Positions 4,372 through 64,000 of a DNA stretch of 64,000 bases are shown piece after piece. The stretch spans positions 51,026,001-51,090,000 of the forward strand of contig NC_043004.1 of NCBI RefSeq assembly GCF_006345805.1, given 5' to 3'. This DNA is from Octopus sinensis (taxonomy: Eukaryota). A model generated the notes under the pieces. It searched no databases. It was not told the DNA's origin and worked only from the letters and a program-made list of their open reading frames with translations. The position numbers were made by a program, and so were the translations under genes. Positions within the stretch are counted from its first letter, which is position 1, and each line of letters begins with the position of its first letter.

Positions 4372-5618
4372 CAGGGGTTGGACAAAATAATGGAAACACC
4401 TTAGAATTTCGAACAAATTTATTTTAATATGGGATAAAACCGCCTTTGGCAGTAATTACAGCTTGAATTCTACAAATTATGGACTCGTACAAAGTTTTAA
4501 TTGCTTCCAAAGGAATTTTTGTCCATTCTGCAGCTAAAACAGTCTCCAGTTCTTGTAGGATACAAGGAGGATATCGACCCCTTACTTGCTTTTCTAAAAT
4601 GCACCATAAATGTTCAATAATATTGAGATCTGGGGACTGTGGTGGCCAGATAAGATGTTCAACTTCACTAGAATGTTCTTCGTGCCATTCAGTAACAACT
4701 TTAGCTGTGTGAATTGGTCCATTATCAACCTGAAAGATTGTACTTCCCTCCGAAAACAGTTCCGCAATCATAGAATGTCTTGACTATTAATTCTGCCATG
4801 AAGGGAAACGATTGGGCCGGCGGATTTCCAAGATATAGCCCCCCCCCCGATCATCATGGATCCTCTTCCATGTTTAACAGTTGGAACAAGGCAGTCTGGG
4901 TCAAATGCTTCTTTCGGCTGTCTCCACACGTATACTCGGCTGGTGGTCAGAAATAGGGTAAAGGATGACTCGTCTGAGAAAATAACATTCTTCCACTGCT
5001 CTAGGGACCAATTCTGTAGTTTTTTACTGCACTCTAAACGCTTTGCAACGTCTGTTTTTGAAAGTAGTGGTTTTCTGATTGCAGCCCTTCCGTGAAATTC
5101 GACTTTGTGCAGCTCCCAGCGAACAGATTTTGTGGAAACTGTGTTCTCGGGGTGGTCATTAAGCTCTGCAGTAATTTTGGGAGCTGTATTTTGTGATCCT
5201 TTCTAACAATTCGCGTAAAAGTCCGACGGTCCCTATCTGAAAGTTTTGGTTTTCTTCCAGAATTTTGTTTCGATGAGGAGGTTTTTCCCTCTTTCTCAAA
5301 GGCTGTCATTACGTTCGAGACAGTACTTCTTGATACACGAAACATTTCGGCTGTTTTCGTTACGCTAGCGCGTGCCATACGTGCATCAACAATTTGACCT
5401 CTTTGAAAGTTCGATAGATCAGTCATTTGATGAATTTTAATTACCTTTTTATGATGATATCTGAAAAGAAACAGCAATTTTACCAAAAGATATTAAGCAA
5501 CACTAATAATAAATAAATAAAAAAACATTAAAATAAACAAGCTTTTGACGCTTTTATAGATATTTCAAAATTATGATGCTATGATGCTAGATGTTTCCAT
5601 TATTTTGTCCAACCTCTG
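4372..5618 (-). mobile_element. Tc1 transposon, full length, frameshifted transposase pseudogene
   Basis: TIRs caggggttggacaaaataatggaaaca with TA flanks; ORF pieces SGRKPKLS, FQVDNGPIHTAK, WPPQSPDLNIIEHLW. Confidence 0.95.
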
Positions 5619-7394: not shown

Positions 7395-8150
7395 TATACA
7401 CACATATGTACATACATACATACATATGTATATAGCTATGCATATATGGGTACAGGACGTCACAAAACGTAAACAACATGAAATACGAAAATAACGTTGG
7501 CTACGCAATGAACGAGAGAAAGAAATGGAAAAAAAGAAAGTAACATAAAGAACGACCCTTCATCAGTTTCGGCTGTCCTTCTACTCCTTATTTCGAGCAT
7601 CCCTATTCCTCCTTTACTCTCTCTCTCTCTCTCTCTCTCTCGTTGCTCACACTTGACCGTCGTCCATCTTTCCTTTCCTCACATGATCATCTTTCTGTTC
7701 TTTCAGTCTGTTGCGCAGTCCTGACACATTCCTACCTGTCTCCTCTCCTATATTTTCTCTTATCAAAGAATCTTCTTCCAGCGTTTGCTAGCTTACCTCA
7801 TCTGAGCCTAAAGGCCCTCTTTGTTTTTATATTCGTTTGGTTCGGTTTGTGTATGTCCTGTTTTTGTTACCAGCTTTGACCTTCCGCAAATCCCAAATTT
7901 TATTTTGGTTCGTAGGAGCAACTGCCTTCACAGTCTTATCTTGTCGTTCATTGCTCGAAATAGGGAGTAGAAGGGCAGCCGACAACTGATGAAGGGTCAT
8001 TTTTTATGTTACTTGTCTGTTTTCCATTTGTCTCTCGTTCTTTGCGTACCCAACTTTATTTTCGTATTTCATGCTGTTTACGTTTTGTGACGTCCTGTAT
8101 CCATATATGCATACCTATATACATACATATGTATGTATGTACAAATGTGT
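7395..8150. mobile_element. PLE-type element with ~200-bp inverted terminal repeats (family R2)
   Basis: ~7395-7600 is the reverse complement of ~7950-8150; the + arm carries the reversed-order HHR at 7922-7997. Confidence 0.7.
7922..7997 (+). ncRNA. Putative reversed-strand-order hammerhead ribozyme (family R2)
   Basis: ctgccttc-acag-tctta-TC|-ttgtcg-ttcatt-gctc-GAAA-taggg-agta-gaagggcag-c-cgacaa-CTGATGA-a-gggt. Stem I ttgtcg/cgacaa is a perfect 6 bp, stem II gggt/gctc, stem III tctta/taggg. Confidence 0.7.
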
Positions 8151-14832: not shown

Positions 14833-15179
14833 TATATAATATATATATATATATATATACCTGAGAAGGAAATTGGGCAGTTCAGCACCATCTTACGACT
14901 CAGCATCGAAGCAAAAATATTTTTCATTCTGTATATTAGCGACAGAAGCAGTACTACTGACAGATAACATTTATCCCTACGTAAATGTGAATGTTCTATT
15001 AGAACAAACTATACTGTTGTAGTTGCGTTGAAACTCTCACATTTGGCTTTTTGGTGCAAATTGCTCTCTTGTTTGTATCGTTATATTTTTCATTATCTTT
15101 TCCCGTCTGCCGACAAAGTTCCTCCTCCAAAAAGAGTACATTATACATTATAACAGAAAGGTGGGATCACTTGAACACC

Positions 15180-15436
15180 TGGCTGCCTGGAGGATATGAC
15201 GGCATATCACGCAACTCTTAATTAAAGCGAAGAAAGGCAAAGGATATCGGGTGGTTCTGTGACTGGCCTCACCAAAGGCCTCCCTCCGGCTCTATGTTGC
15301 ATAAGCTGCAAGAGGAAGTTTTTCGAAGTCACCATGTTCCCAGCTGGATCAACTGAGTGAGAGAAGGGGCCTGGTGCCGAAAGACCTGAAACTCCATCAT
15401 AAACTTGGAACGTCATTGATAGTTCATCCCAGAGCA
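15180..15436 (+). mobile_element. Degenerate 3' end of a HERO/NeSL-like RLE LINE with decayed reversed-order HHR (15353-15430)
   Basis: gaaagacctgaaactcc...acgtcattgatagttcatccc resembles the HERO-type 3' UTR as recalled from memory (not verified); pairings ctgagt/acttgg, gggg/ctcc, tggtg/cgtca. Confidence 0.45.
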
Positions 15437-16067
15437 TGAATGTGTGTGTGTGTGTGTATTTTTGTATATAAATCTTATACATAAATGGTAATTTCTGTCT
15501 GTCGATCTGACTGTTATTATCTTGCTGACTACACCAATGAACCAATCTTGGGGACACTTTGCAAACATATTAAACTTACATCCAGTTCAATTATAGGCTA
15601 ATTAGATTTCACTAAAATTATATAATGAACCCCCTAGGTGTGTGTATGTGGGGGGGTATTATTTCTTAAAATGAGAAAGATGCAAACAGTGTTAATGTGA
15701 GTGAAATGTGGTGGCTTAGTGAGTGTGGCTGATATCAGAGGTGGGTAGAAAAGCCTTGTGTAAACGACAAATATGGAGTGGCAGTAGGATGGTAACGTTA
15801 ATACAGCTACCATTCACAGATATACACGTGACGCTGCATACATGCTTTCGTAAATACATAGATACATGCATACACACACAGAGTACACACACACGCTACA
15901 CACACATACACATGCACACACGCATAACTAACTTTTAAACGCCGAGGAAGGGAAAGAAAGGTAGGTATGAGGAATACGTCGATTTAAGGAGAGACGGGTA
16001 GGTGGCTTTTCGGCTGTCCATCGCAAAGTAACACACACACACACACACGCACGCACACACACACACA

Positions 16068-29827: not shown

Positions 29828-30605
29828 AATAGCAACGTAAAATGCGTCTGAACAATTGGTTGATAGGTGGGAACAAAAACCTCTGCATGGCAAATATGTG
29901 ACCCGTAGCAAACATACTGATGTAGATCAGAAGCACGCCCATCCGTGGCTACGGACTTCAGGGCTAAAGGCAGAGAGTGAAATTTTTCATCTTGGCTGTC
30001 CAGAGCTTATTGACCCAGAACTATCAAGTCAATGTGATGAAACATGGTGTAGACCCAAAGTGTTGATACTGCAACGATAGGATAGAAACAGTGGACCACC
30101 TAATCTCTGGTTGTGAAGTTTTAGCACCTGTAGAGTAGAAATCATGACATGACAGAGTTGGTCAATATCTACATTGGATAATGTGCCGGCATTATAAAAT
30201 CAGAATTGCCGACAAATTGTACAAGCACCACCCTGGGGCTGTAACTGAGGGAGAAAATGTAAATATTATTTGGGACTTAACCCGGACCATCAAAGCAAAT
30301 AAATAAGATATTGTAGTGAAAGACCAAAACAATAAAGTTTGTTTATTGATTGACATGAGCATACCGTGTGAACATAATATCTCGGCAAAAGAATTTGATA
30401 AGCTCAGAAAATATAAACATTTGCTAATCGAAATCGAAAAGATGTGGCATCTCAAGACAGTTACAATACCAGTAATTGTAGGAGCACTTGGAATGATAAA
30501 AAAAAGGAACTGAAAATTATTTAAGAATGATCCCTGGCTTACCATTCATGCAGGAAGTGCAAAAGACGTCTTAAATGGTACGTCACACGTATTGAGAAGA
30601 ATATT

Positions 30606-32438
30606 GGGCACTGTCATGCCTTTGGATGTCATTTTCACGTCACACTTTTTCTCGTCCATCTTCGTTTCTTTCCGTATAATTTACGCAAAATCAAAAACGC
30701 GTGTAAATATATCAAATTAAAAAACGCAAATTATTTAGAATGTAAAAATCAAATATATCAAATTAAAAAACGCAAATTATTTAGAATGTAAAAATCAAAT
30801 ATATCAAATTAAAAAACGCAAATTATTTAGAATGTAAAAATCAAATATATCAAATTAAAAAACGCAAATTATTTAGAATGTAAAAATCAAATATATTTAT
30901 TCTTGCATTATTCATTATTGTTTTTAAAAAAGAAATCACACCAAAATCTGCACAAATGAACCCCCATGACCATCACCGCGATTACATACACCAATCAGAA
31001 TGACCACTGACCACCACGTGCGTAATTCAAACTTTGAAATTTATTCAGTTAGAAACTTTCAGTGTGATATCAACACGTGCTAAACAATTTTTAATATGGC
31101 TTTTGCATATCCAAGTTTAAGAGGAATTAGTCACCGCGATATTGCCGTCTCCACTGCTACAACAGCAGATAGCATTAATTGGCTTAAGAGACATGGCCTT
31201 TTGAATACCCAGAAAATATGTACATCGTGTGGAGCTAGCATGAGTGAAGTAGGGAAAAAAAGTATATCTGATGAAGTAATATGGTCGTGTGGAAGGCCTT
31301 GTAGAAAATCCGTGTCAATTAGAAAAGGAACATTTTTAGAAAATAGCAAATTGAAGTGTCAACAAATCATAGATATTTTGTTTTACTGGGCCAAAGAAGA
31401 TTTAGCAAAAGGAATAGGACAGGAATGTCATTTAGCAAATGTAGCCGTGACAGATTGGAGGAATTTTTGCCGCGATGTATGTGCAGAATATTATGTTGCA
31501 CAGAATATTAAGCTGGGAGGACCCAACAGAATCGTAGAGATAGATAAAACCGCGTTTGTTAGGAGAAAATATCATGTTGGCCATCGGGTTAAAACGCAGT
31601 GGGTGTTTGGTGCTTTAGAAAGAGATACCAGAAGATGTATTTTAGTGGCAGTGGAAGATCGGACAGCGGACACTCTTTTACAGATTATACGAGAGCGTAT
31701 ATTGCCTGGTACAACAATAATTTCCGACCTTTGGCGTTCGTATAATACACTCAGTCAACTAGGATACAGACATTTGACCGTGAATCATTCAATAAATTTT
31801 GTTGATCCGGTAACATTTGCCACAACCAACCACATAGAATGTTTATGGAAACACGTAAAGACTCGAAATAGAAGAGAATGTGGAACAGCCAGAAATTTAC
31901 TTCAGACCCATCTCATCGAATTCATGTGGCGCTATGAATTTAAGGACGATATATTCGGGAAGTTGATAGAGCAAATTCGACAGCTATATCCATGTGTTGA
32001 GTATAAGTATCAAGACAGAATGAGTATCGCATTTATTTTTAAACTTAACTTCAAGTTTATATTTTGATAATCTCACCGTTGAAAATGATATTTGAAAATA
32101 ATTTGCGTTTATTAATTTGATATATTTGATTTTTACATTCTAAATAATTTGCGTTTTTTAATTTGATATATTTGATTTTTACATTCTAAATAATTTGCGT
32201 TTTTTAATTTGATATATTTGATTTTTACATTCTAAATAATTTGCGTTTTTTAATTTGATATATTTGATTTTTACATTCTAAATAATTTGCGTTTTTTAAT
32301 TTGATATATTTACACGCGTTTTTGATTTTGCGTAAATTATACGGAAAGAAACGAAGATGGACGAGAAAAAGTGTGACGTCAAAATGACGTCAGATTTTTC
32401 TTCTTTCACTTCTGACATCCAAAGGCATGACAGTGCCC
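30606..32438 (+). mobile_element. Merlin DNA transposon with ~290-bp TIRs containing 46-bp tandem repeats
   Basis: Perfect terminal gggcactgtcatgcctttggatgtca / tgacatccaaaggcatgacagtgccc; 46-bp unit x4 at 30705-30888, inverted at ~32096-32310. Confidence 0.93.
31096..32067 (+). CDS. Merlin/ISXO2-like (IS1595-family) DDE transposase, 323 aa, uninterrupted
   Basis: N-terminal CxxC..C..C zinc ribbon, SIRKGTFLE, VEIDKT, WVFG, IISDLWRSY, HLTVNHS..FVDP, TNHIECLW, HLIEFMWR. Confidence 0.92.
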   Translation: MAFAYPSLRGISHRDIAVSTATTADSINWLKRHGLLNTQKICTSCGASMSEVGKKSISDEVIWSCGRPCRKSVSIRKGTFLENSKLKCQQIIDILFYWAKEDLAKGIGQECHLANVAVTDWRNFCRDVCAEYYVAQNIKLGGPNRIVEIDKTAFVRRKYHVGHRVKTQWVFGALERDTRRCILVAVEDRTADTLLQIIRERILPGTTIISDLWRSYNTLSQLGYRHLTVNHSINFVDPVTFATTNHIECLWKHVKTRNRRECGTARNLLQTHLIEFMWRYEFKDDIFGKLIEQIRQLYPCVEYKYQDRMSIAFIFKLNFKFIF

Positions 32439-39594: not shown

Positions 39595-39670
39595 ATAGTC
39601 AAGATAAAACTCTGAGTTTCAGATGCCGATGTGGAAATCCACAACACCATCTCTTCGGTTATCTGGCTAT
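39595..39670 (-). ncRNA. Type I hammerhead in the PLE pLTR, CCGAAGA core variant
   Basis: Minus strand reads atagccagataa-CCGAAGA-gatg..gtgga/tccac..catc-t-GAAAC-tcaga-GTT|-ttatcttgactat. Confidence 0.75.
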
Positions 39671-40524
39671 TTGAAAACGTTATGAAAAAATACCGTTATA
39701 TAAAGGGAAATTACTGTGTTATAACTCTGCTTGCCTGCGTACTTATACATCGCTCGCATTTTTCGTCATAAAAATTATATAAAAATACATAAAAATATAT
39801 AAAAATATATAAAATCTTCTTGGGACGTAACATAGAAAGCATGTCCTATCTGTTTTCTTTAGGGGACCAAAAACGTAACAGAAATTTAGTCACATATGGG
39901 CATGATCCGAAAAGTTCTGTCCTTGTGTTTAGACATGTAGTAGGGTCTAAGCTGCTTTTCCAGATAAGCCATCTCACCATGTCGCATAGACCGCACCTTC
40001 CGCTGCCGTTGGTATAGGGCTTACATCTGGCCAAAATCTTCCAATGTATGTTATAATCGACACCTTTATCTCTTAAAGACCAAATATGATTAGATAATTG
40101 TGTCGCTTTTCTTTTGTTCCAGTGCCTAAAGCTCAAAGTGTGGTTATTGAACCCTGGCCTTGAAATTACCCTCTGTAAGGCCCACGTATTTCTTCGTCGA
40201 AACGGTGTCTTTAGTTGTTATAGAGTTTACGGTAGCTTCATATATGATGGTCTTGGACATGCAAGCTCCATTTAGCGGGCACAATTCTTTATTCCTGCAT
40301 GAACAGCTGTTTTCTTGTTGTGTTTTTTGTATGTTATGTTTGATTATGTTTTTAAAATTGGTAGTGAACTAAAACTAATTTTTAAATTGTGTCTATTGAA
40401 GAGTTTCCTATAAGTGTGGTTAACTGGAAAATGTCTATCTATCAGTGCTAGGAAATATTTACCTATATTGAAGGCCACCTCGGGTGAGTAAGGGGGCGTA
40501 AACCAGATGACCTTCCTATTTCTA

Positions 40525-41028
40525 TTATTCCTTTTCCTTACTGTTGGGCGTATATTTTATTTTATCGCTAAAACGACTATCTTTTAAAGCCTTATTATAA
40601 ACTGGGGCAACGCCATTGAAGATGTCCTTATCAGAGGAGAGGCTAGAAATCCTCTTACTAATATTTTTAACTAAATTTTTGAATACTATAGGGGGATGGC
40701 ATGAACCTACATTAATATAACTTAGTCTATCATTGGGCTTCCTATAAGGCTTATAAATATTCTTATTAAGATCTAAGGAAACGTCTAAGAAATTGACAAC
40801 CGTCAGGTTAGTATCTATAGTTATACTAAGTCCGAAGTATTTCATTAACTGGATAATATCCTTCCTAAAACGATCTTGTGCTGGTCCATTTGTATTAGCT
40901 GTTAAGGCGAGGGCATCATCCTTGTAGATGGCGAAATGTACGTTAGGGAATGTCTTACCTAAGGTATCTAGGAGAAAAAGTCCAATTACATCACAGATGC
41001 CTGCCCCATCATATGAACCCATGCTCAC
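40525..41028 (-). pseudogene. PLE reverse transcriptase fragment
   Basis: MGSYDGA..IYKDD..NFLDV..YRKPN..HPP motifs; in-frame stop and frameshifts downstream. Confidence 0.92.
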
Positions 41029-41211
41029 ATCGAAAGCGCCCTCTGTGTCGGTGTTTTTTTACCCACTTTGCGTTCTCACTGAAAAGTAATGTCTTTCTAG
41101 AGTTTTATCTTGACTATCGAGTAATGTAACATATTATTGTATAGATAAATTTCCTCTATTTACATAATATTGAGGTCTCTTTCTTTCTTTTGTTATCTTA
41201 CCGTTTTACCA

Positions 41212-52758: not shown

Positions 52759-54013
52759 CAGGGATTGGACAAAATAATGGAAACACCTAGCATCAGAGCA
52801 TCATAATTTTCAAATATCTATAAAACCGTCAAAAGCTTGTTTATTTTTATGTTTTTTGATTTATTACTAGTGTTGCTTAATATGTTTTGCTAAAATTGCT
52901 GTTTCTTTTCAAATATCATCAGAAAATGGTAATTAAAATCCATTAAAATGACAGATCTATCGGACTTTCGAAGAGGTCAAATTGTTGGTGTTCGTATGGG
53001 AGGCGCTAGCGTAACGAAAACAGCCGAAATGTTTGGTGTATCAAGAAGTACTGTCTCGAAAATAATGACAGCCTTTGAGAAAGAAGGAAAAACCTCCTCT
53101 TCGAAACAGAACTCCGGAAGAAAACCAAAACTTTCAGATAGGAACTGTCAGACTCTTACGCGTATTGCTAGAAAGGATCACAAAAGAACTGCTCCCAAAA
53201 TTACTGCAGAGCTTAATGACCACCTCGAGAACACAGTTTCCACAAAAACTGTTTGCTGGTAGCTGCACAAAGCCGGATGTCACGGGAGAGCTGCAATCAA
53301 AATACCACAATTTTCAAAGCAAACGTTGCAAAGCGTTTAGAGTGGAGTAAAAACCTACAGAATTGGTCCCTAGAACAGTGGAAGAATGTTATTTTCTCGA
53401 ACGAGTCATCCTTTACCATATTTCCGACCACCGGCCGAGTATACATGTTGAGACAGCCGAAGGAACATTTGACCCAGACAGCCTTCTTCCAATTGGTAAA
53501 CGTGGAGGATTTGTGATGATCTGGGTGACTATATCTTGGAAATCCGCCGGCCCAGTGGCAGAATTAATAGTCAAGACTATTTAAGCATTTTATCTGATCA
53601 AATTTATCCTATGGTTGCGGAACTGTTTCCAGAGAGAAACGCAATCTTTCAGGATGATAATGCACCAATTCACACAGCTAAATTTGTTACTGAATGGCAC
53701 AAGGAACATTCTAATGAAGTTGAACATCTTATCTGGCTACCACAGTCCCCAGATCTCAATATTATTTAACATTTATGGTGCATTTTAGAAAAACAAGTAA
53801 GGAGTCGATATCCTCCACCATCGTCACTACAAGAACTAGATATTGTTTTAGCTGAAGAATGGACAAAAATTCATTTGGAAACAATTCAAACTTTTTACGA
53901 GTCCATACCTCGTAGAATTCAAGCTGTAATTACTGCCAAAGGCGGTGCTACCTCATATTGAAATAAATTCGTTTGAAATTTTAAAGTGCTTCCATTACTA
54001 TGTCCAACCCCTG
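52759..54013 (+). mobile_element. Tc1 transposon, full length, transposase pseudogene (same family as 4372-5618)
   Basis: TIRs cagggattggacaaaataatgg / tatgtccaacccctg with TA flanks; VIFSNES, FQDDNAPIHTAK, QSPDLNII. Confidence 0.95.
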
Positions 54014-55476: not shown

Positions 55477-56410
55477 GGCGGGCTGGCCATATCGGAGCAA
55501 TCTCAAGATTAATCAGCCGAAATTGCTAAGATGATCTGGTTCTTGACTGATGACTGAGGGCTTCGAATGTCCGTCCTGTGGTTCTGTGTCGTCTCTGTGG
55601 TGTTTCATGTTCTTGTCCATGTCTGTAATTAATTTTACTGTTTACCTATATAATCGGCGGCTACGTATCCACAATTGTCCTTATACGATAAGTATATTTT
55701 TTTCTCTAGCTTTGATACGACTCTTAATCTGTCTCTTTTTCTCTCTCTCTCTCTCCTCCCTTATTCCACTTCCTTTCTTTCCCTCTCCATCCGTCCCCCC
55801 CCCTTCTACGTTTCTCTATCTCTCTCACCTCCAGCCCCCTCGATCTGTCTCTTTCTTCTCCTCCCTCGTCCACCTTCTCTCCTCTTTTCATCTGTCCCTT
55901 TCTCCGTCTTTTGTTCTCACGTGACAGCTAGCCGCTGTTGAGCGCTCTTTTCGTTTTCAGCAGCCGCAGAAGCAACACGTATTTGTCGTCTCCCCGTGCC
56001 TTTAGCACTTCACAGCCAGCCCCAACTCAAATCGTCCTGTCGAAGACCCTTGTCCTACGTCCTGGTTTTGTTTGTTGTTTATTTTTTATTTTTACCGTTA
56101 TTGTTTTTACGTTTTTGATTCTTATTGGTGTCACGTATTCTGTATTTGTTTGTGTACTTCGATCGTTTTCCGTCCTTTCGTTGTATACATTCGAAGCTTT
56201 TTCCAGGGGATCTAATGCGCTTGGCTTAGATTTCCCTTGGCGGCTGGCCATATCGGAGCAATCTCAAGATTAATCAGCCGAAATTGCTAAGATGATCTGG
56301 TTCGACTGATGACTGAGGGCTTCGAATGTCCCGTCCTGTGGTTCTTGTGTCGTCTCTGGTGGTGTTTCATGTTCTTGTCCATGTCTGTAATTAATTTTAC
56401 TGTTTACCTA
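55477..56410 (+). mobile_element. Non-coding element with ~170-bp direct terminal repeats, each holding a reversed-order HHR (family R1); duplicated at 57007-57938
   Basis: 55477-55650 matches 56238-56410; 761 nt between predicted cleavage sites 55502 and 56263; (TA)n flanks. Confidence 0.8.
55487..55562 (+). ncRNA. Putative reversed-strand-order hammerhead (family R1, intact core)
   Basis: ccatatc-gg-agcaa-TC|-tcaaga-ttaatc-agcc-GAAA-ttgct-aagat-gatctgg-t-tcttga-CTGATGA-ctgag-ggct; further copies at 56248-56321, 57018-57091 and 57774-57850. Confidence 0.7.
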
Positions 56411-56967
56411 TATATATATATATATATAGATATATATATATATATATAATATATATATACTTTATTCAAAAGCAGCAGAAATTCAATAAAACCTGTTACT
56501 CGGAGTTTCAACGTTCCCGTTCGTCGGCAGTTTTGCTAAGTAAAGCATATTACTCTACCCCTGGTATTTGAGTACTCTTTTTTCCACCTTGTTTCACATT
56601 TATGTGTTTACTCCGGTATATATATATATATATAATAACAAAGGGTAAAATTAATTAATTAAGAAGTAATCGTTCAAATGTTTCTAGTACCTTCGGATTG
56701 TTACAGAAAATCCATACTGATGAAGAATATGGTTAGTAAAGTATATATTTTTATATTCTTTATGTAAAAACCTATTCAGAACGCGCGTCTATGGATGATC
56801 GGATATTGATTGATTTTCGTTTGCTTTACTTTACTTTCTGCTATGTGATTAAACTTCAAGTATTTTGGGTTCTCTGGAAGTAGAAGAAATGGCTAAGAGT
56901 TTTGGCTGCTATTTCTGAACTTCGGTGTGTGGTGAGGCAATTCTTTGCTGAACCCTTTTATTAGTAT

Positions 56968-57003
<36 letters not shown>

Positions 57004-58020
57004 ATATGGCGGGCTGGCCATATCGGAGCAATTCAAGATTAATCAGCCGAAATTGCTAAGATGATCTGGTTCTTGACTGAGACTGAGGGCTTCGAATGTC
57101 CGTCCTGTGGTTCTTGTGTCGTCTCTGTGGTGTTTCATGTTCTTGTCCATGTCTGTAATTAATTTTACTGTTTACTATATAATCGGCGGCTACGTATCCA
57201 CAATTGTCCTTATACGTAAGTATATTTTTTTCTAGCTTTGATACGACTCTTAATCTGTCTCTTTTTCTCTCTCTCTCTCTCCTCCTTATTCCACTTCCTT
57301 TCTTTCCCTCTCCATCCGTCCCCCCCCCTTCTACGTTTCTCTATCTCTCTCACCTCCAGCCCCCTCGATCTGTCTCTTTCTTTCCTCCCTCGTCCACCTT
57401 CTCTCCCTTTTCATCTGTCCCTTTCTCCTGTCTTTTGTTCTCACGTGACAGCTAGCCGCTGTTGAGCGCTCTTTTCGTTTTCAGCAGCCGCAGAAGCACA
57501 CGTATTTGTTCGTCTCCCCGTGGCCTTTAGGCACAACTTCACAAGCCAGCCATACTCAAATCGTCTGTCGAAAGACCCTTGTCCTACGTCCTGGTTTGTT
57601 TTGTTGTTATTTTTTATTTTTACCGTTATGTTTTACGTTTTTGTATTCTTATTGGGTCACGTATTCTGTATTTTTGTTTGTGTACTTCGATCGTTTTCCG
57701 TCCTTTCGTTGTATACATTCAAGTTCTTCCAGGGGATCTAATGCGCTTGGCTTAGATTTCCCTGGCGGGCTGGCCATATCGGAGCAATCTCAAGATTAAT
57801 CAGCCGAAATTGCTATAGATGATCTGGTTCTTGACTGATGACTGAGGGCTTCGAATGTCCCGTCCTGTGGTTCTTGTGTCGTCTCTGTGGTGTTTCATGT
57901 TCTTGTCCATGTCTGTAATTAATTTTACTGTTTACCTATATATATATATATATATAGATATATATATATATATATAATATATATATACTTTATTCAAAAG
58001 CAGCAGAAATTCAATAAAAC

Positions 58021-58059
58021 CTGTTACTCGGAGTTTCAACGTTCCCGTTCGTCGGACAG
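58021..58059 (-). ncRNA. Minimal hammerhead, CCGACGA core variant (also 56493-56530; truncated + copy 19152-19183)
   Basis: Minus strand reads ctgt-CCGACGA-acg-ggaa-cgt-t-GAAAC-tccga-GTA|-acag. Confidence 0.65.
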
Positions 58060-58235
58060 TTTTGCTAAGTAAAGCATATTACTCTACCCCTGGTATTTGA
58101 GTACTCTTTTTTCCACCTTGTTTCACATTTATGTGTTTACTCCGGTATATAAATATATATAATAACAAAGGGTAAAATTAATTAATAAGAAGTAATCGTT
58201 CAAATGTTTCTAGTACCTTCGGATTGTTACAGAAA

Positions 58236-58324
58236 ATCCATACTGATGAAGAATATGGTTAGTAAAGTATATATTTTTATATTCTTTATGTAAAAACCTA
58301 ATTCAGAAACGCGCGTCTATGGAT
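58236..58324 (+). ncRNA. Type I hammerhead (family Z3; second copy 56710-56796)
   Basis: atccata-CTGATGA-agaat..ggtt/aacc..attca-GAAAC-gcgc-GTC|-tatggat; stem I is 7 bp. Confidence 0.85.
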
Positions 58325-59950: not shown

Positions 59951-60437
59951 TTCCTTCTCTTCTTACTGATGGGTTCATACATATGTATGAGTGTGTGTGT
60001 GTGTGGTGTGTGTGTGTGTGTGTGTGTGTTCTCTTGTGTTCTTAGTTATTTGAGATCTTCCTCTAATATTTCTTCTGGATCTTTACATTCTGAATTCAAA
60101 TCTCGCCGAGATCAACATTGACTTTCATCCTTCTGGGGTCGATAAATACCAGCCAAGTAGCGGAGCGAGTGGAAGGGATTAACCTCTTTCTTCATATTCC
60201 AAGCCTTATACCTATATTTAAAACATGAGCTAGCAGAATCCTTAGTGCGTCGGATAAAATGCTTAGAGACATTTCTTACGGTACTTTAAGTTCTGAGCTG
60301 AAATTCTACCGAGGTCGACTTTACTTTTTATCCTTTCGGGATCGATAAAATAAAGGACTAGCGAAGCATGGGGGTTGATGGAATCGAGTTATCCCTGCCC
60401 TGAAAACTGTTGGCTTGTGCCTATAGTGGAAGGGACC

Positions 60438-61315
60438 ATCATCATCATCATCATCATCACCATCATCATCATCATCCCCATCACCATCACCATCATCATC
60501 ATCATCGTCATCGTCATCGTCATTATCATCGTCATCGTCATCATCATCGTCATCGTCATCATCATCGTCATCGTCGTCATCGTCATCGTCAACATCATCA
60601 TCGTCGTCATCGTCATCGTCGTCATCGTCATCGTCGTCATCGTAATCGTCATCATCGTCATCATCGTCATCATCGTCATCGTCATCATCGTCAGTCATCA
60701 TCGTCATCGTCATCATCGTCATCGTCATCATCGTCTTCGTCATCATCGTCATCATCATCATGGTCATCATCATCATGGTCATCATCATCATGGTCATCAT
60801 CATCATCATCATCACCATCACCATCACCATCACCATCACAATCACCATCATTATCATCATCATCATCATCATCATCGCCATCACCATCGCCATCGCCAGC
60901 ACCATCACCATCACCATCGTCATCGTCATCGTCATCGCCATCGCCATCACCATCATCATCACCATCATCATCATCGCCATCGCCATCGCCATCTCCATCA
61001 CCATCACCATCACCATCCTCTTCGTCATCGTCATCGCCATCGCTATCGCCATCGCCATCATCATCATCGTCATCGTCATCGTCATCGTCGTCATCATCAT
61101 CATCATCATCATCATCACCATCACCATCATCACCATCACCATCACCGTCACCACCACCATCACCTCACCATCATCATCACCATCATCATCATCATCATCA
61201 TCATCATCACCATCGCCATCGCCATCGCCATCATAATCATCATCATCATCATCATCATCATCGTCATCGTCTTCGCCATCGCCATCACATCACCGTCACC
61301 ATCATCATCATCATC

Positions 61316-61346
<31 letters not shown>

Positions 61347-61622
61347 CCATCACCATCACCATCATCTTCATCATCACCATCATCATCATCATCATAATCA
61401 TCATCATCGCCGTCGCCATCGCCACGCCATCACATCACCATCACCATCATCTCATCATCATCATCATCATCATCATCACATCACCATCACCGTCACCATC
61501 ACCTCACCATCATCACCTCACCATCATCATCATCATCATCATCATCGCCATCGTCATCGCCATCGTCATCGCATCGCCATCGCCATCACCACCCATCACC
61601 ATCACCTCACCATCATCATCAC

Positions 61623-61656
<34 letters not shown>

Positions 61657-61872
61657 TATCATCATCATCATCGCCATCACCATCACCATCACCATCATCT
61701 TCATCATCATCATCATCATCATCATCACATCACCATCACCGTCACCATCACCTCACCATCATCATCACCATCATCATCATCATCATCATCATCGCCATCG
61801 TCATCGCCATCGTCATCGCCATCGCCATCGCCATCACCATCACCATCACCATCACCTCACCATCATCATCAC

Positions 61873-61915
<43 letters not shown>

Positions 61916-62342
61916 GCCATCACCATCGCCATCGCCAGCACCATCACCATCACCATCGTCATCGTCATCGTCATCGCCATCGCCATCACCATCATCATCA
62001 CCATCATCATCATCGCCATCGCCATCGCCATCTCCATCACCATCACCATCACCATCCTCTTCGTCATCGTCATCGCCATCGCTATCGCCATCGCCATCAT
62101 CATCATCATCGTCATCGTCATCGTCATCGTCGTCATCATCATCATCATCATCATCATCACCATCACCATCATCACCATCACCATCACCGTCACCACCACC
62201 ATCACCTCACCATCATCATCACCATCATCATCATCATCATCATCATCATCACCATCGCCATCGCCATCGCCATCATAATCATCATCATCATCATCATCAT
62301 CATCGTCATCGTCTTCGCCATCGCCATCACCATCACCGTCAC

Positions 62343-62392
<50 letters not shown>

Positions 62393-62559
62393 CCATCACC
62401 ATCACCATCATCTTCATCATCACCATCATCATCATCATCATCATCATCATCGCCGTCGCCATCGCCATCACCATCACCATCACCATCATCTTCATCATCA
62501 TCATCATCATCATCATCACATCACCATCACCGTCACCATCACCTCACCATCATCATCAC

Positions 62560-62602
<43 letters not shown>

Positions 62603-62987
62603 GCCATCGCCATCGCCGTCGCCATCGCCATCATCATCATCATCATCATCGCCATCGTCATCGCCATCGCCATCGCCATCACCATCACCGTCACCATCAC
62701 CTCACCATCATCATCACCATCATCATCATCATCATCATCATCATCGCCATCGCCATCGTCATCGCCATCGCCATCACCATCACCATCGTCATCGCCATCG
62801 TCATCGCCATCGCCATCGCCATCAACATCACCATCACCATCATCATCACCATCATCATCATCATCATCGTCATCGCCATCGCCATCGCCCTCGCCATCAT
62901 TATCATCATCATCATCGTCGTCATCGTCATCGCCATGTCCATCACCAACACCATCACCATCACCATCGCCATCACCATCACTATCAC

Positions 62988-63022
<35 letters not shown>

Positions 63023-63081
63023 CTATCACCATCATCATCATCATCATCATCATCATTACCATCATCATCACCATCCCCATC

Positions 63082-63113
<32 letters not shown>

Positions 63114-63304
63114 CATCATCATCACCCTCACCATCACCCACACCATCATCATCCTCATCATCGCCATCGCCATCATCATCATCGCCATCGTCATCGTCAT
63201 CGTCGTCGCCGTCGCCGTCACCGTCACCGTCATCGCCATCGCCATCATCATCATCATCATCATCATCACCACCATCATCATCATCATCATCATCATCATC
63301 GTCG

Positions 63305-63350
<46 letters not shown>

Positions 63351-63358
63351 TATTATTA
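60438..63358. repeat. ~2.9-kb degenerate (CAT/CAC/CGT/CGC)n array with ~1039-bp higher-order repeat
   Basis: The rare word catcgccagc recurs at 60891 and 61930; catctcc and cctcttcg recur at similar spacing. Confidence 0.92.
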
Positions 63359-64000
63359 TTATTACATATTTGACTTTTGCTTTATATTTGTACAAGTTGG
63401 CTCCAAGTCTCACCCAGAGACCTCAAGAGACAACAGGTTGGAAGTTCACGTTGTTGTTATACCTTGTGTGCCATATATTTGGTTGTTTTTCTGTTTTACT
63501 AGTGGATCTCTAAAAAAAAATGTTTGTTTTAAACCTTGAGATTACATAGAAAGTACTTTGCGTAGGGTATGAGTAGTTCCCATGAGCACTACCTTTTGAA
63601 TTTCTGCCATTTTTGGGTTTCCTGTTAGGTAGCAATCAGCCCCTTTTGCTATCATTCCCAGGGCACCTATGACAACAGGTATTGTTTTAGTCTTCAGGTT
63701 CCACAGTTTGCTGATTTCTATTTCAAGATCTTTATATTTGCTCAGTTTTTGGTAGGTCTTGACAGATACGTTTATATCGATTGGGACAGTCATATCAATG
63801 AGGAGGCATGTTCTTTGTTTGAAGTCTTTCAATATGGTGTCTGGCCTATTTGCATCTATCTTTCTGTCAGTTTGAATGGTGAAGTTCCAGAGGAGTGAGA
63901 TGTGGTCATTTTCAAGCACTGGGGGTGGTTTGTGTTCCCACCAGTTTTTTTCATGGGGAAAATCCAGGTTTTTGCAGATTACCCAGTGAATATATTGTGC
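63359..64000 (-). pseudogene. 3' end of R4/Dong-like LINE (restriction-like endonuclease)
   Basis: LLWNFTIQTDRKIDANRPDTILKD..CLLIDMTVP..KLSKYKDLEIEI..IPVVIGALG; (AAT)n tail adjoining the CAT array. Confidence 0.9.

Follow-up and report, generated by a model that had tools for sequence, protein, structure and literature searches.

Features of the locus

The window analysed here is a stretch of 64,000 nucleotides (nt) of the Octopus sinensis genome (assembly GCF_006345805.1, contig NC_043004.1, positions 51,026,001 to 51,090,000 of the forward strand; unprefixed coordinates below are positions in the window). It includes the remains of a long interspersed nuclear element (LINE), the 3′ end of which carries a decayed copy of a hammerhead ribozyme-like fold with its blocks in reversed order. 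Intact versions of the fold are found in relatives of this LINE and in two other repeat families of the window, and they point to a hammerhead variant whose core is interrupted between A9 and G10.1.

An earlier note on this DNA, made from the sequence alone, described a decayed reversed-order fold at the 3′ end of a HERO-like LINE, and the string quoted there sits at 15353–15422 on the + strand. A profile of 30 other genomic copies of a repeat designated family B, to which the window copy belongs, gave a sole nhmmer match in the window, at 15339–15438 (E = 5.5e-18), and 71 of the 103 letters of the window copy are those of the family-B majority. The adjoining segment 15083–15343 matches the reverse transcriptase (RT) region of an intact relative, L078 (blastn, 63.7% identity over 267 nt, E = 5e-17; 0/20 shuffled queries match), and its tblastn pieces correspond to residues ~344–488 of full-length relatives. 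Thus, the element's last 100 nt are joined to an RT piece. Through the internal deletion that created this joint, the upstream arm of helix Pa was lost together with most of hairpin Pb (see below).

In the window copy, the cleavage triplet, C11.1 and the CUGANGA element are mutated and the upstream arms are lost, as expected of a decayed instance. The copy therefore lacks the intact CUGANGA, C11.1-GAAA and NUH by which a hammerhead is recognised. U16.1 is replaced, so that no NUH is left (the family majority retains it), and the homologous cut would fall after 15371. The structure descriptor used for the relatives did not match this copy even with three core mismatches, and no hammerhead family was among the best 150 of 272 Rfam matches for the window. 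A DNA search with the decayed motif alone matched only itself, and a search of the own genome with 15150–15445 found two weaker places, both RT-coding remnants. Taken alone, the motif is too degenerate to beat chance, and its significance comes from homology. The window copy is, with hardly any doubt, a dead remnant, an inert fossil. The older genomic copies are likewise mostly dead, a full pass of the descriptor being obtained for 3/30 family-A and 0/30 family-B loci.

Identity of the element

A short pattern search led to LINE 3′ ends with remnants of a C-terminal endonuclease, and two DNA searches of the own genome yielded 30 loci each for families A and B. Searching with a translated piece of family A yielded 163 proteins, the majority from fish and some from lancelet. 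The proteins of the relatives include the Pfam domains RVT_1 and zf-RVT and, as alignment motifs, a CCHC knuckle and a PD-(D/E)xK-type tail; their closest solved relatives are R2 proteins. Judged by these sequence comparisons, the element is a LINE of the restriction-like endonuclease (RLE) type, R2 group, of which the window itself retains only the RT piece. Hence, homology supports the earlier assignment as far as an R2-group LINE 3′ end is concerned, while HERO serves here as a provisional name for its clade.

Copies are dispersed over many contigs and are often followed by simple repeats. HERO elements insert in a dispersed or microsatellite-associated manner and do not target ribosomal DNA, U2 or spliced leader genes (PMC4640811). 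Shared with the HERO clade (PMC4640811, PMC5678591) are one open reading frame (ORF) that encodes RT, a CCHC knuckle and a restriction-like endonuclease, insertion that is dispersed or flanked by microsatellites, and relatives in fish and lancelet, this being a likeness by description and not by an RT tree. The excerpts of these two papers mention no ribozyme. Viral contigs gave no relative.

Two loci (L154 and L155) are HERO-like pieces in two bacterial assemblies, on scaffolds shorter than 1 kb; they are probably animal contamination and were not used. Elsewhere in the window, 29970–30510 (+) and 63557–63890 (-) are remnants of another RLE-bearing LINE, weakly similar to the C-terminus of HERO-like proteins.

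A reversed hammerhead core in the relatives

Eighty metagenome loci were chosen by protein alone, and 58 of them include at least 180 nt after the ORF. The exact core together with stems I and III was found in 32/58, and in 27/58 an upstream stem II and helix Pa of at least 6 bp were present as well. The same descriptor matched 0/1160 shuffles, 0/58 reverse strands and 0/55 ORF stretches. A refined scan placed stem II upstream in 30 loci; in 26 of the 30, Pa, Pb and stem II follow one another without an unpaired base, an arrangement that the scoring favoured. Three further matches, located 670–820 nt downstream, bring the number of relatives with the exact core in reversed order to 33/58; these have CUGANGA, GAAA, A15.1-U16.1 and an H17 other than G. 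Intact examples are L074 (3439–3558), L091 (3667–3789) and L096 (1956–2076). The expectation that intact relatives would carry NUH, GAAA, CUGANGA and complementary stems was thus borne out in these protein-picked loci.

Among 14 representatives sharing <70% identity, the cleavage triplet is GUC in six, GUA in four, GUU in three and AUA in one. Positions that are free in hammerheads vary: each of the four bases occurs at N7, and no G is seen at H17. In a tree of the relatives (46 rows; 12/58 loci with short alignments were left out), the fold is present on either side of the midpoint root, without clear clustering of its label; rows L103, L131 and L133, labelled as lacking the fold, turned out to carry it. 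In the relaxed-scan rows, the GAAA label includes cases with a differing first letter.

By-eye inspection of the 3′ untranslated regions (UTRs) of L096, L098, L100, L107, L111, L114, L119 and L143 found tRNA-like box words between the stop codon and the fold. These words of that subgroup are perhaps an RNA polymerase III promoter; ARAGORN called 0 genes in 12 loci.

Architecture and covariation

The elements of the fold are arranged in the order 5′-Pa, hairpin Pb, stem II 5′ strand, clasp 5′ strand, stem III 5′ strand, NUH, stem I 5′ strand, stem II 3′ strand, GAAA, stem III 3′ strand, clasp 3′ strand, stem I 3′ strand, CUGANGA and Pa 3′ strand. The strand before GAAA (stem II) has its partner upstream of the cut, and none was read right after the core. 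The strand that follows CUGANGA pairs further upstream to give Pa, and hairpin Pb fills the gap. Two extra helices thus lie between A9 and G10.1, the chain ends are located there, and in the intact relatives A9 is not within 0–2 nt of the stem II strand. The fold is not simply one of reversed order, as first described: stem II, which had not been located in that reading, has its partner upstream, and the break in the core lies between A9 and G10.1. The segment taken for a stem III extension is the 5′ strand of a helix that clasps stems I and II.

In the 14 representatives, Watson-Crick pairing of own versus swapped strands was 0.97/0.36 for stem I, 0.96/0.40 for stem II, 0.86/0.50 for stem III and 0.84/0.32 for Pa, as compared with 0.33/0.30 for stem II in its published SGC position. 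Since the helices had been selected to pair, such swapped-pair controls favour own pairing by construction, and two fairer tests were therefore made, a fixed-window search for stem II and a sequence-only alignment. When the core was the only anchor and the search range was fixed, a stem II partner of 4 bp was found upstream in 14/14 representatives (26/182 when swapped) and after the core in 1/14. When 20 of the 30 loci with an upstream stem II were aligned by MAFFT on sequence alone, 84.8% of cells paired and 20/24 pairs changed on both sides; the covariation score was reached by 0/500 shuffles, and slid controls were 36–48% paired. Covariation was seen in every helix tested (stem I, stem II with G10.1-C11.1, stem III and Pa).

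The clasp, which is outside the descriptor, links stems I and II at their outer ends. Its mean energy was -10.9 kcal/mol for own and -5.3 kcal/mol for swapped strands (0/5000 permutations), and by this pairing the contact of stem I with stem II is made through the clasp helix. Minimum-free-energy folding recovers Pa, Pb and nested parts, pseudoknots being beyond the method. Pa and Pb would stack as a four-way junction that keeps A9 beside G10.1.

Three facts weigh against the fold as described and have to be set beside the bias of the swapped-strand comparison. The descriptor was built after these sequences had been viewed; Pa has only 4 bp in 4/14 representatives; and 25/58 relatives have no strict match, seven of which pass a relaxed scan while the remainder are decayed, truncated or truly without the fold. 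Nevertheless, we have very little doubt that the fold is conserved under selection, and in the intact relatives it probably self-cleaves, as predicted from its core.

In L074, L076, L078 and relatives, the loop of hairpin Pb frequently contains a palindrome of six letters, at which RNA dimers might form by kissing.

The same fold in other repeats of the window and in Naiad elements

The fold also occurs in two other repeat families of the window (Table 1). The repeat family at 7877–7999 gave a full pass in 5/19 other copies. The second family, at 55480–58300, is a young protein-less tandem repeat with a unit of ~760–780 nt, TA flanks and copies 98% identical. The intact fold is found in each unit, and 19/19 other copies of the unit at 57727–57848 pass. 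The repeat has 1634 candidate places in the own genome and looks like a non-LTR retrozyme. No ORF for a telomerase-like RT or GIY-YIG protein was found within ~1.5 kb of the two families (40 loci), and the arrangement of their copies (tandem or inverted, with TA flanks) is compatible with non-autonomous derivatives of Penelope-like elements (PLEs).

Table 1. Positions of the LINE remnant, its decayed fold and further copies of the fold in the window.
Position	Strand	Feature	Basis
15083–15343	+	Decayed, frameshifted RT fragment of RLE-type (HERO-like) LINE	blastn/tblastn
15339–15438	+	LINE family B 3′ end	nhmmer and alignment with 30 copies
15346–15350	+	Stem II 5′ strand (G10.1 side), upstream of cleavage site, one mismatch	family alignment
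15353–15358	+	Stem I-II clasp helix, 5′ strand	
15366–15371	+	Stem III 5′ strand and cleavage triplet	sequence
15372–15378	+	Stem I 5′ strand, weakened	
15383–15395	+	Stem II 3′ strand (C11.1 lost), GAAA (15388–15391), stem III 3′ strand	
15403–15415	+	Clasp 3′ strand and stem I 3′ strand	
15416–15422	+	Decayed CUGANGA core, three substitutions	sequence
15423–15432	+	Helix Pa 3′ strand, upstream partner deleted	family alignment
7877–7999	+	Intact fold, another repeat family, predicted cut after 7940	descriptor match
55481–55560	+	Fold, 5′-truncated first unit of young tandem repeat, predicted cut after 55502	
56200–56320	+	Fold, second tandem unit, predicted cut after 56263	
57727–57848	+	Fold, intact tandem unit, predicted cut after 57789	descriptor match

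Craig et al. (2021; PMC8557442) flagged eight Naiads, a group of PLEs, as 'HHR_half_core', with core halves 35–50 nt apart; the excerpts of that paper give no structure for them and call Naiads devoid of canonical hammerheads. The octopus Naiad 3′ end printed before Naiad_Ovul (from the file order, Naiad_Obim) can be read by eye as the fold, and no clear parse was obtained by eye for 15 other Naiad ends, the sequences being those of the excerpts. A short word from the octopus Naiad end gave 775 matches in the own genome versus 0 for the control, and 8/12 of the Naiad-end loci fetched parse, five of them in full. No RT ORF was found beside these 12 loci, so that the link to PLEs rests on one published Naiad consensus. 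On this footing, the suggestion that the motif is common to RLE-type LINEs and PLEs holds.

The segments 7877–7999 (+) and 7500–7620 (-) are inverted copies of the same repeat, which has 2439 candidate places in the own genome. At 39600–41058 (-), fragments resemble a Penelope-like RT and endonuclease, with no Pfam hit. Near 39610–39660, 3′ of these fragments, a minimal hammerhead in canonical order was read by eye.

Comparison with known ribozymes

Cleavage is known for SGC and CSG hammerheads, whose four helices are the same (Eckert et al. 2023, PMC10085705). The LINE fold shares with type SGC (HRIMA-1 and variants) and type CSG the core letters, an extra helix that clasps stems I and II, a pseudoknotted short linker between these stems, and a cut near the 5′ side. 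It differs in that the chain of SGC and CSG is opened between blocks, whereas that of the LINE fold is opened between A9 and G10.1, with Pa and Pb inserted there. Furthermore, SGC and CSG are metatranscriptome or metagenome RNAs that, one GCS candidate excepted, could not be placed in the genome of a known organism, whereas the LINE fold is found in animal retroelements. By the definition of Eckert et al., the relatives have the reversed circular order and the clasp helix, but their block C (stem I strand, CUGANGA and stem II strand) is broken. The LINE fold is therefore not a member of SGC or CSG. Types I, II and III were considered and rejected, as they need the C-G-S order without pseudoknots and the order of the LINE fold is S, G, C. 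No Rfam hammerhead match was obtained in 10 relative loci at E<=1.

The type I and minimal hammerheads found in PLEs and in non-LTR retrozymes (PMC4209133; bioRxiv 10.64898/2026.07.22.740005) are likewise associated with terminal repeats of retroelements, with tandem or partial-tandem copies and with a proposed circle route. They are of type I with a short stem III and act as dimers, whereas each copy of the LINE fold includes full stems I–III; also unlike them, the fold occurs in an RLE LINE as well. The 5′ hepatitis delta virus-like ribozyme of R2 and L1Tc (PMC6765202) is another self-cleaving RNA that could free a unit from a co-transcript. It belongs to a different class and is located at the 5′ end, whereas the LINE fold is at the 3′ end with its predicted cut inside the element.

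Hammerhead variants with additional helices exist (PMC13725137). The literature covered, including excerpts of PMC6765202, PMC3088659, PMC6155905, PMC10162972, PMC13725137, PMC5678591 and two 2026 preprints and with subscription papers and Repbase outside this scope, describes no HERO hammerhead and no helices between A9 and G10.1. Thus, the conserved hammerhead variant is apparently undescribed.

Position of the cut and structure of genomic copies

The predicted cut follows the stop codon in 29/30 parsed loci. The earlier note had suggested that the motif sets the RNA terminus used for insertion. Instead, genomic copies of family A cross the predicted cut, contain the whole fold and end ~90 nt past the cut, which thus does not set the priming end. 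None of 41 family-A copies ends at the cut, in a sample picked partly with 3′-side sequence. [quoted passage not shown] There is no junction hot spot at the cut in 92 Naiad-end copies, only one of which starts there.

In 12/80 loci, the 3′ end is joined to a 5′ UTR or there is a terminal overlap, which gives tandem or partial-tandem junctions. In the own genome, 3/5 places that reach the start of the 5′ UTR have a whole 3′-end copy directly upstream. In L313 (positions 1052–2030 of that locus), a single insertion consists of the 3′ end, the 5′ UTR, an internally deleted ORF and the 3′ end again, with a period of 771 nt; judged by sequence, this is a 1.25-mer of a non-autonomous derivative of the LINE. 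A direct repeat nearby accounts for the short duplications in L219 and L293 that end at the cut. In public contigs from six runs, one contig of run X1 starts at +1 of the predicted cut, but similar starts are explained by breaks of the graph at variants.

Head-to-tail and partial-tandem copies fit an RNA circle made by the ribozyme. By this route, the hammerhead would cut in two successive units of a read-through (multimeric) transcript, and the double cut would free a permuted monomer, the ends of which would be ligated to give an RNA circle of unit length. The RT of the element would then copy the circle, priming internally ~90 nt past the cut, and by going round more than once it would place a 3′-end copy in front of the 5′ UTR. 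A circle model was proposed earlier for PLEs (PMC4209133). The route, every step of which is inferred, is plausible but tentative.

A number of points speak against it. The two repeats of L313 share one derived change, as unrelated copies do, and are uninformative; L109, L315 and L320 have full 5′ ends with no 3′-end copy in front; and tandems could arise by insertion beside an existing copy. Insertion of a PLE in vitro does not need hammerhead cleavage, and no RNA-seq ends were reported at the PLE cut (excerpts of PMC11167929). As for the fold itself, an insertion between A9 and G10.1 breaks a block that is treated as uninterruptible in PMC10085705.

Other roles of the fold were considered. 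Cleavage may serve linear trimming of the 5′ end rather than formation of circles, which would be in keeping with most of the ribozyme being located on the 3′ side of the cut. Contig L080 begins at +2 relative to the predicted cut, with its own 3′-end copy (92% identical) before the 5′ UTR, and 2/15 deletions in the 41 family-A copies abut the cut; the title of an item in the reference list of PMC6765202 also speaks of R2 RT copying across non-continuous RNA. However, the upstream 3′-end copies in L313, L319, L327 and L076 reach 5′ of the cut, and starts at the cut are as rare in Naiad-end copies as noted above. The deletion signal is small and post hoc, and the start of the L080 contig can be an assembly break; 5′ trimming is thus considered unlikely. 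It is less probable again that the fold is a hammerhead-derived structure through which the RT recognises the 3′ end, with little or no cleavage in vivo. LINE 3′ UTR stem-loops are bound by the element's own RT, copies span the cut intact, and the independence of PLE insertion in vitro from cleavage (PMC11167929) points the same way. Were the fold purely a binding site, one would not expect exactly the catalytic letters to stay invariant, with H17 never G, in relatives whose proteins are 34–89% identical to the query, a pattern that holds for the 33 matches, whose scan required those letters.

Cleavage could also act as a self-limiting switch that strips the RT-priming tail and poly(A) from most transcripts, so that only protein-protected RNAs are inserted. 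As the cut follows the stop codon in nearly all parsed loci and precedes the 3′ end by ~90 nt, a cut monomer loses its tail. Alone, such a switch leaves the head-to-tail junctions and the fold in the protein-less tandem family unexplained, and it is regarded as improbable. Finally, the fold would be an ordinary published type SGC if stem II were formed by the strand directly after CUGANGA. On the 20-row alignment, this strand is 59% paired, a weak signal (covariation score reached by 3/500 shuffles) that is possibly due to an alternative fold. The upstream partner is 88% paired on the same alignment, and the fixed-window and own/swapped comparisons described above also place stem II upstream, making type SGC highly improbable.

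On balance, we favour the reading that a core split between A9 and G10.1 is conserved at the tail of the LINE, is likely self-cleaving and feeds RNA circles to the RT. More tentative than the circle route itself is a wider proposal: an architecture outside the six published block orders, opened in the core and closed by a four-way junction, would be clade-wide in HERO-like LINEs, Naiads and protein-less parasites, the LINE would transpose via circular RNA, and the module would have moved between unrelated classes of retroelements. The result for the family would take hammerheads that are not circularly permuted beyond the anonymous RNAs of metatranscriptomes into animal genomes, and it would break a rule assumed by every descriptor search, according to which CUGANGA cannot be separated from stem II. 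A concrete structure would be offered for the 'missing' hammerheads of Naiads. Whether tandem insertions of retroelements originate in RNA circles made by a ribozyme, a long-open question, would become directly testable in a LINE.

Other features of the window

An open frame of 327 amino acids at 31084–32067 (+) includes an ISXO2-like transposase domain (PF12762, E = 1.5e-18). Remnants of Tc1/mariner-like transposases are located at 4424–5492 (-), with a DDE_3 match at 4427–4783, and at 52933–53262 (+). An array of CAT/CAC trinucleotide-like repeats of ~3 kb with a strong GC skew occupies 60300–63500.
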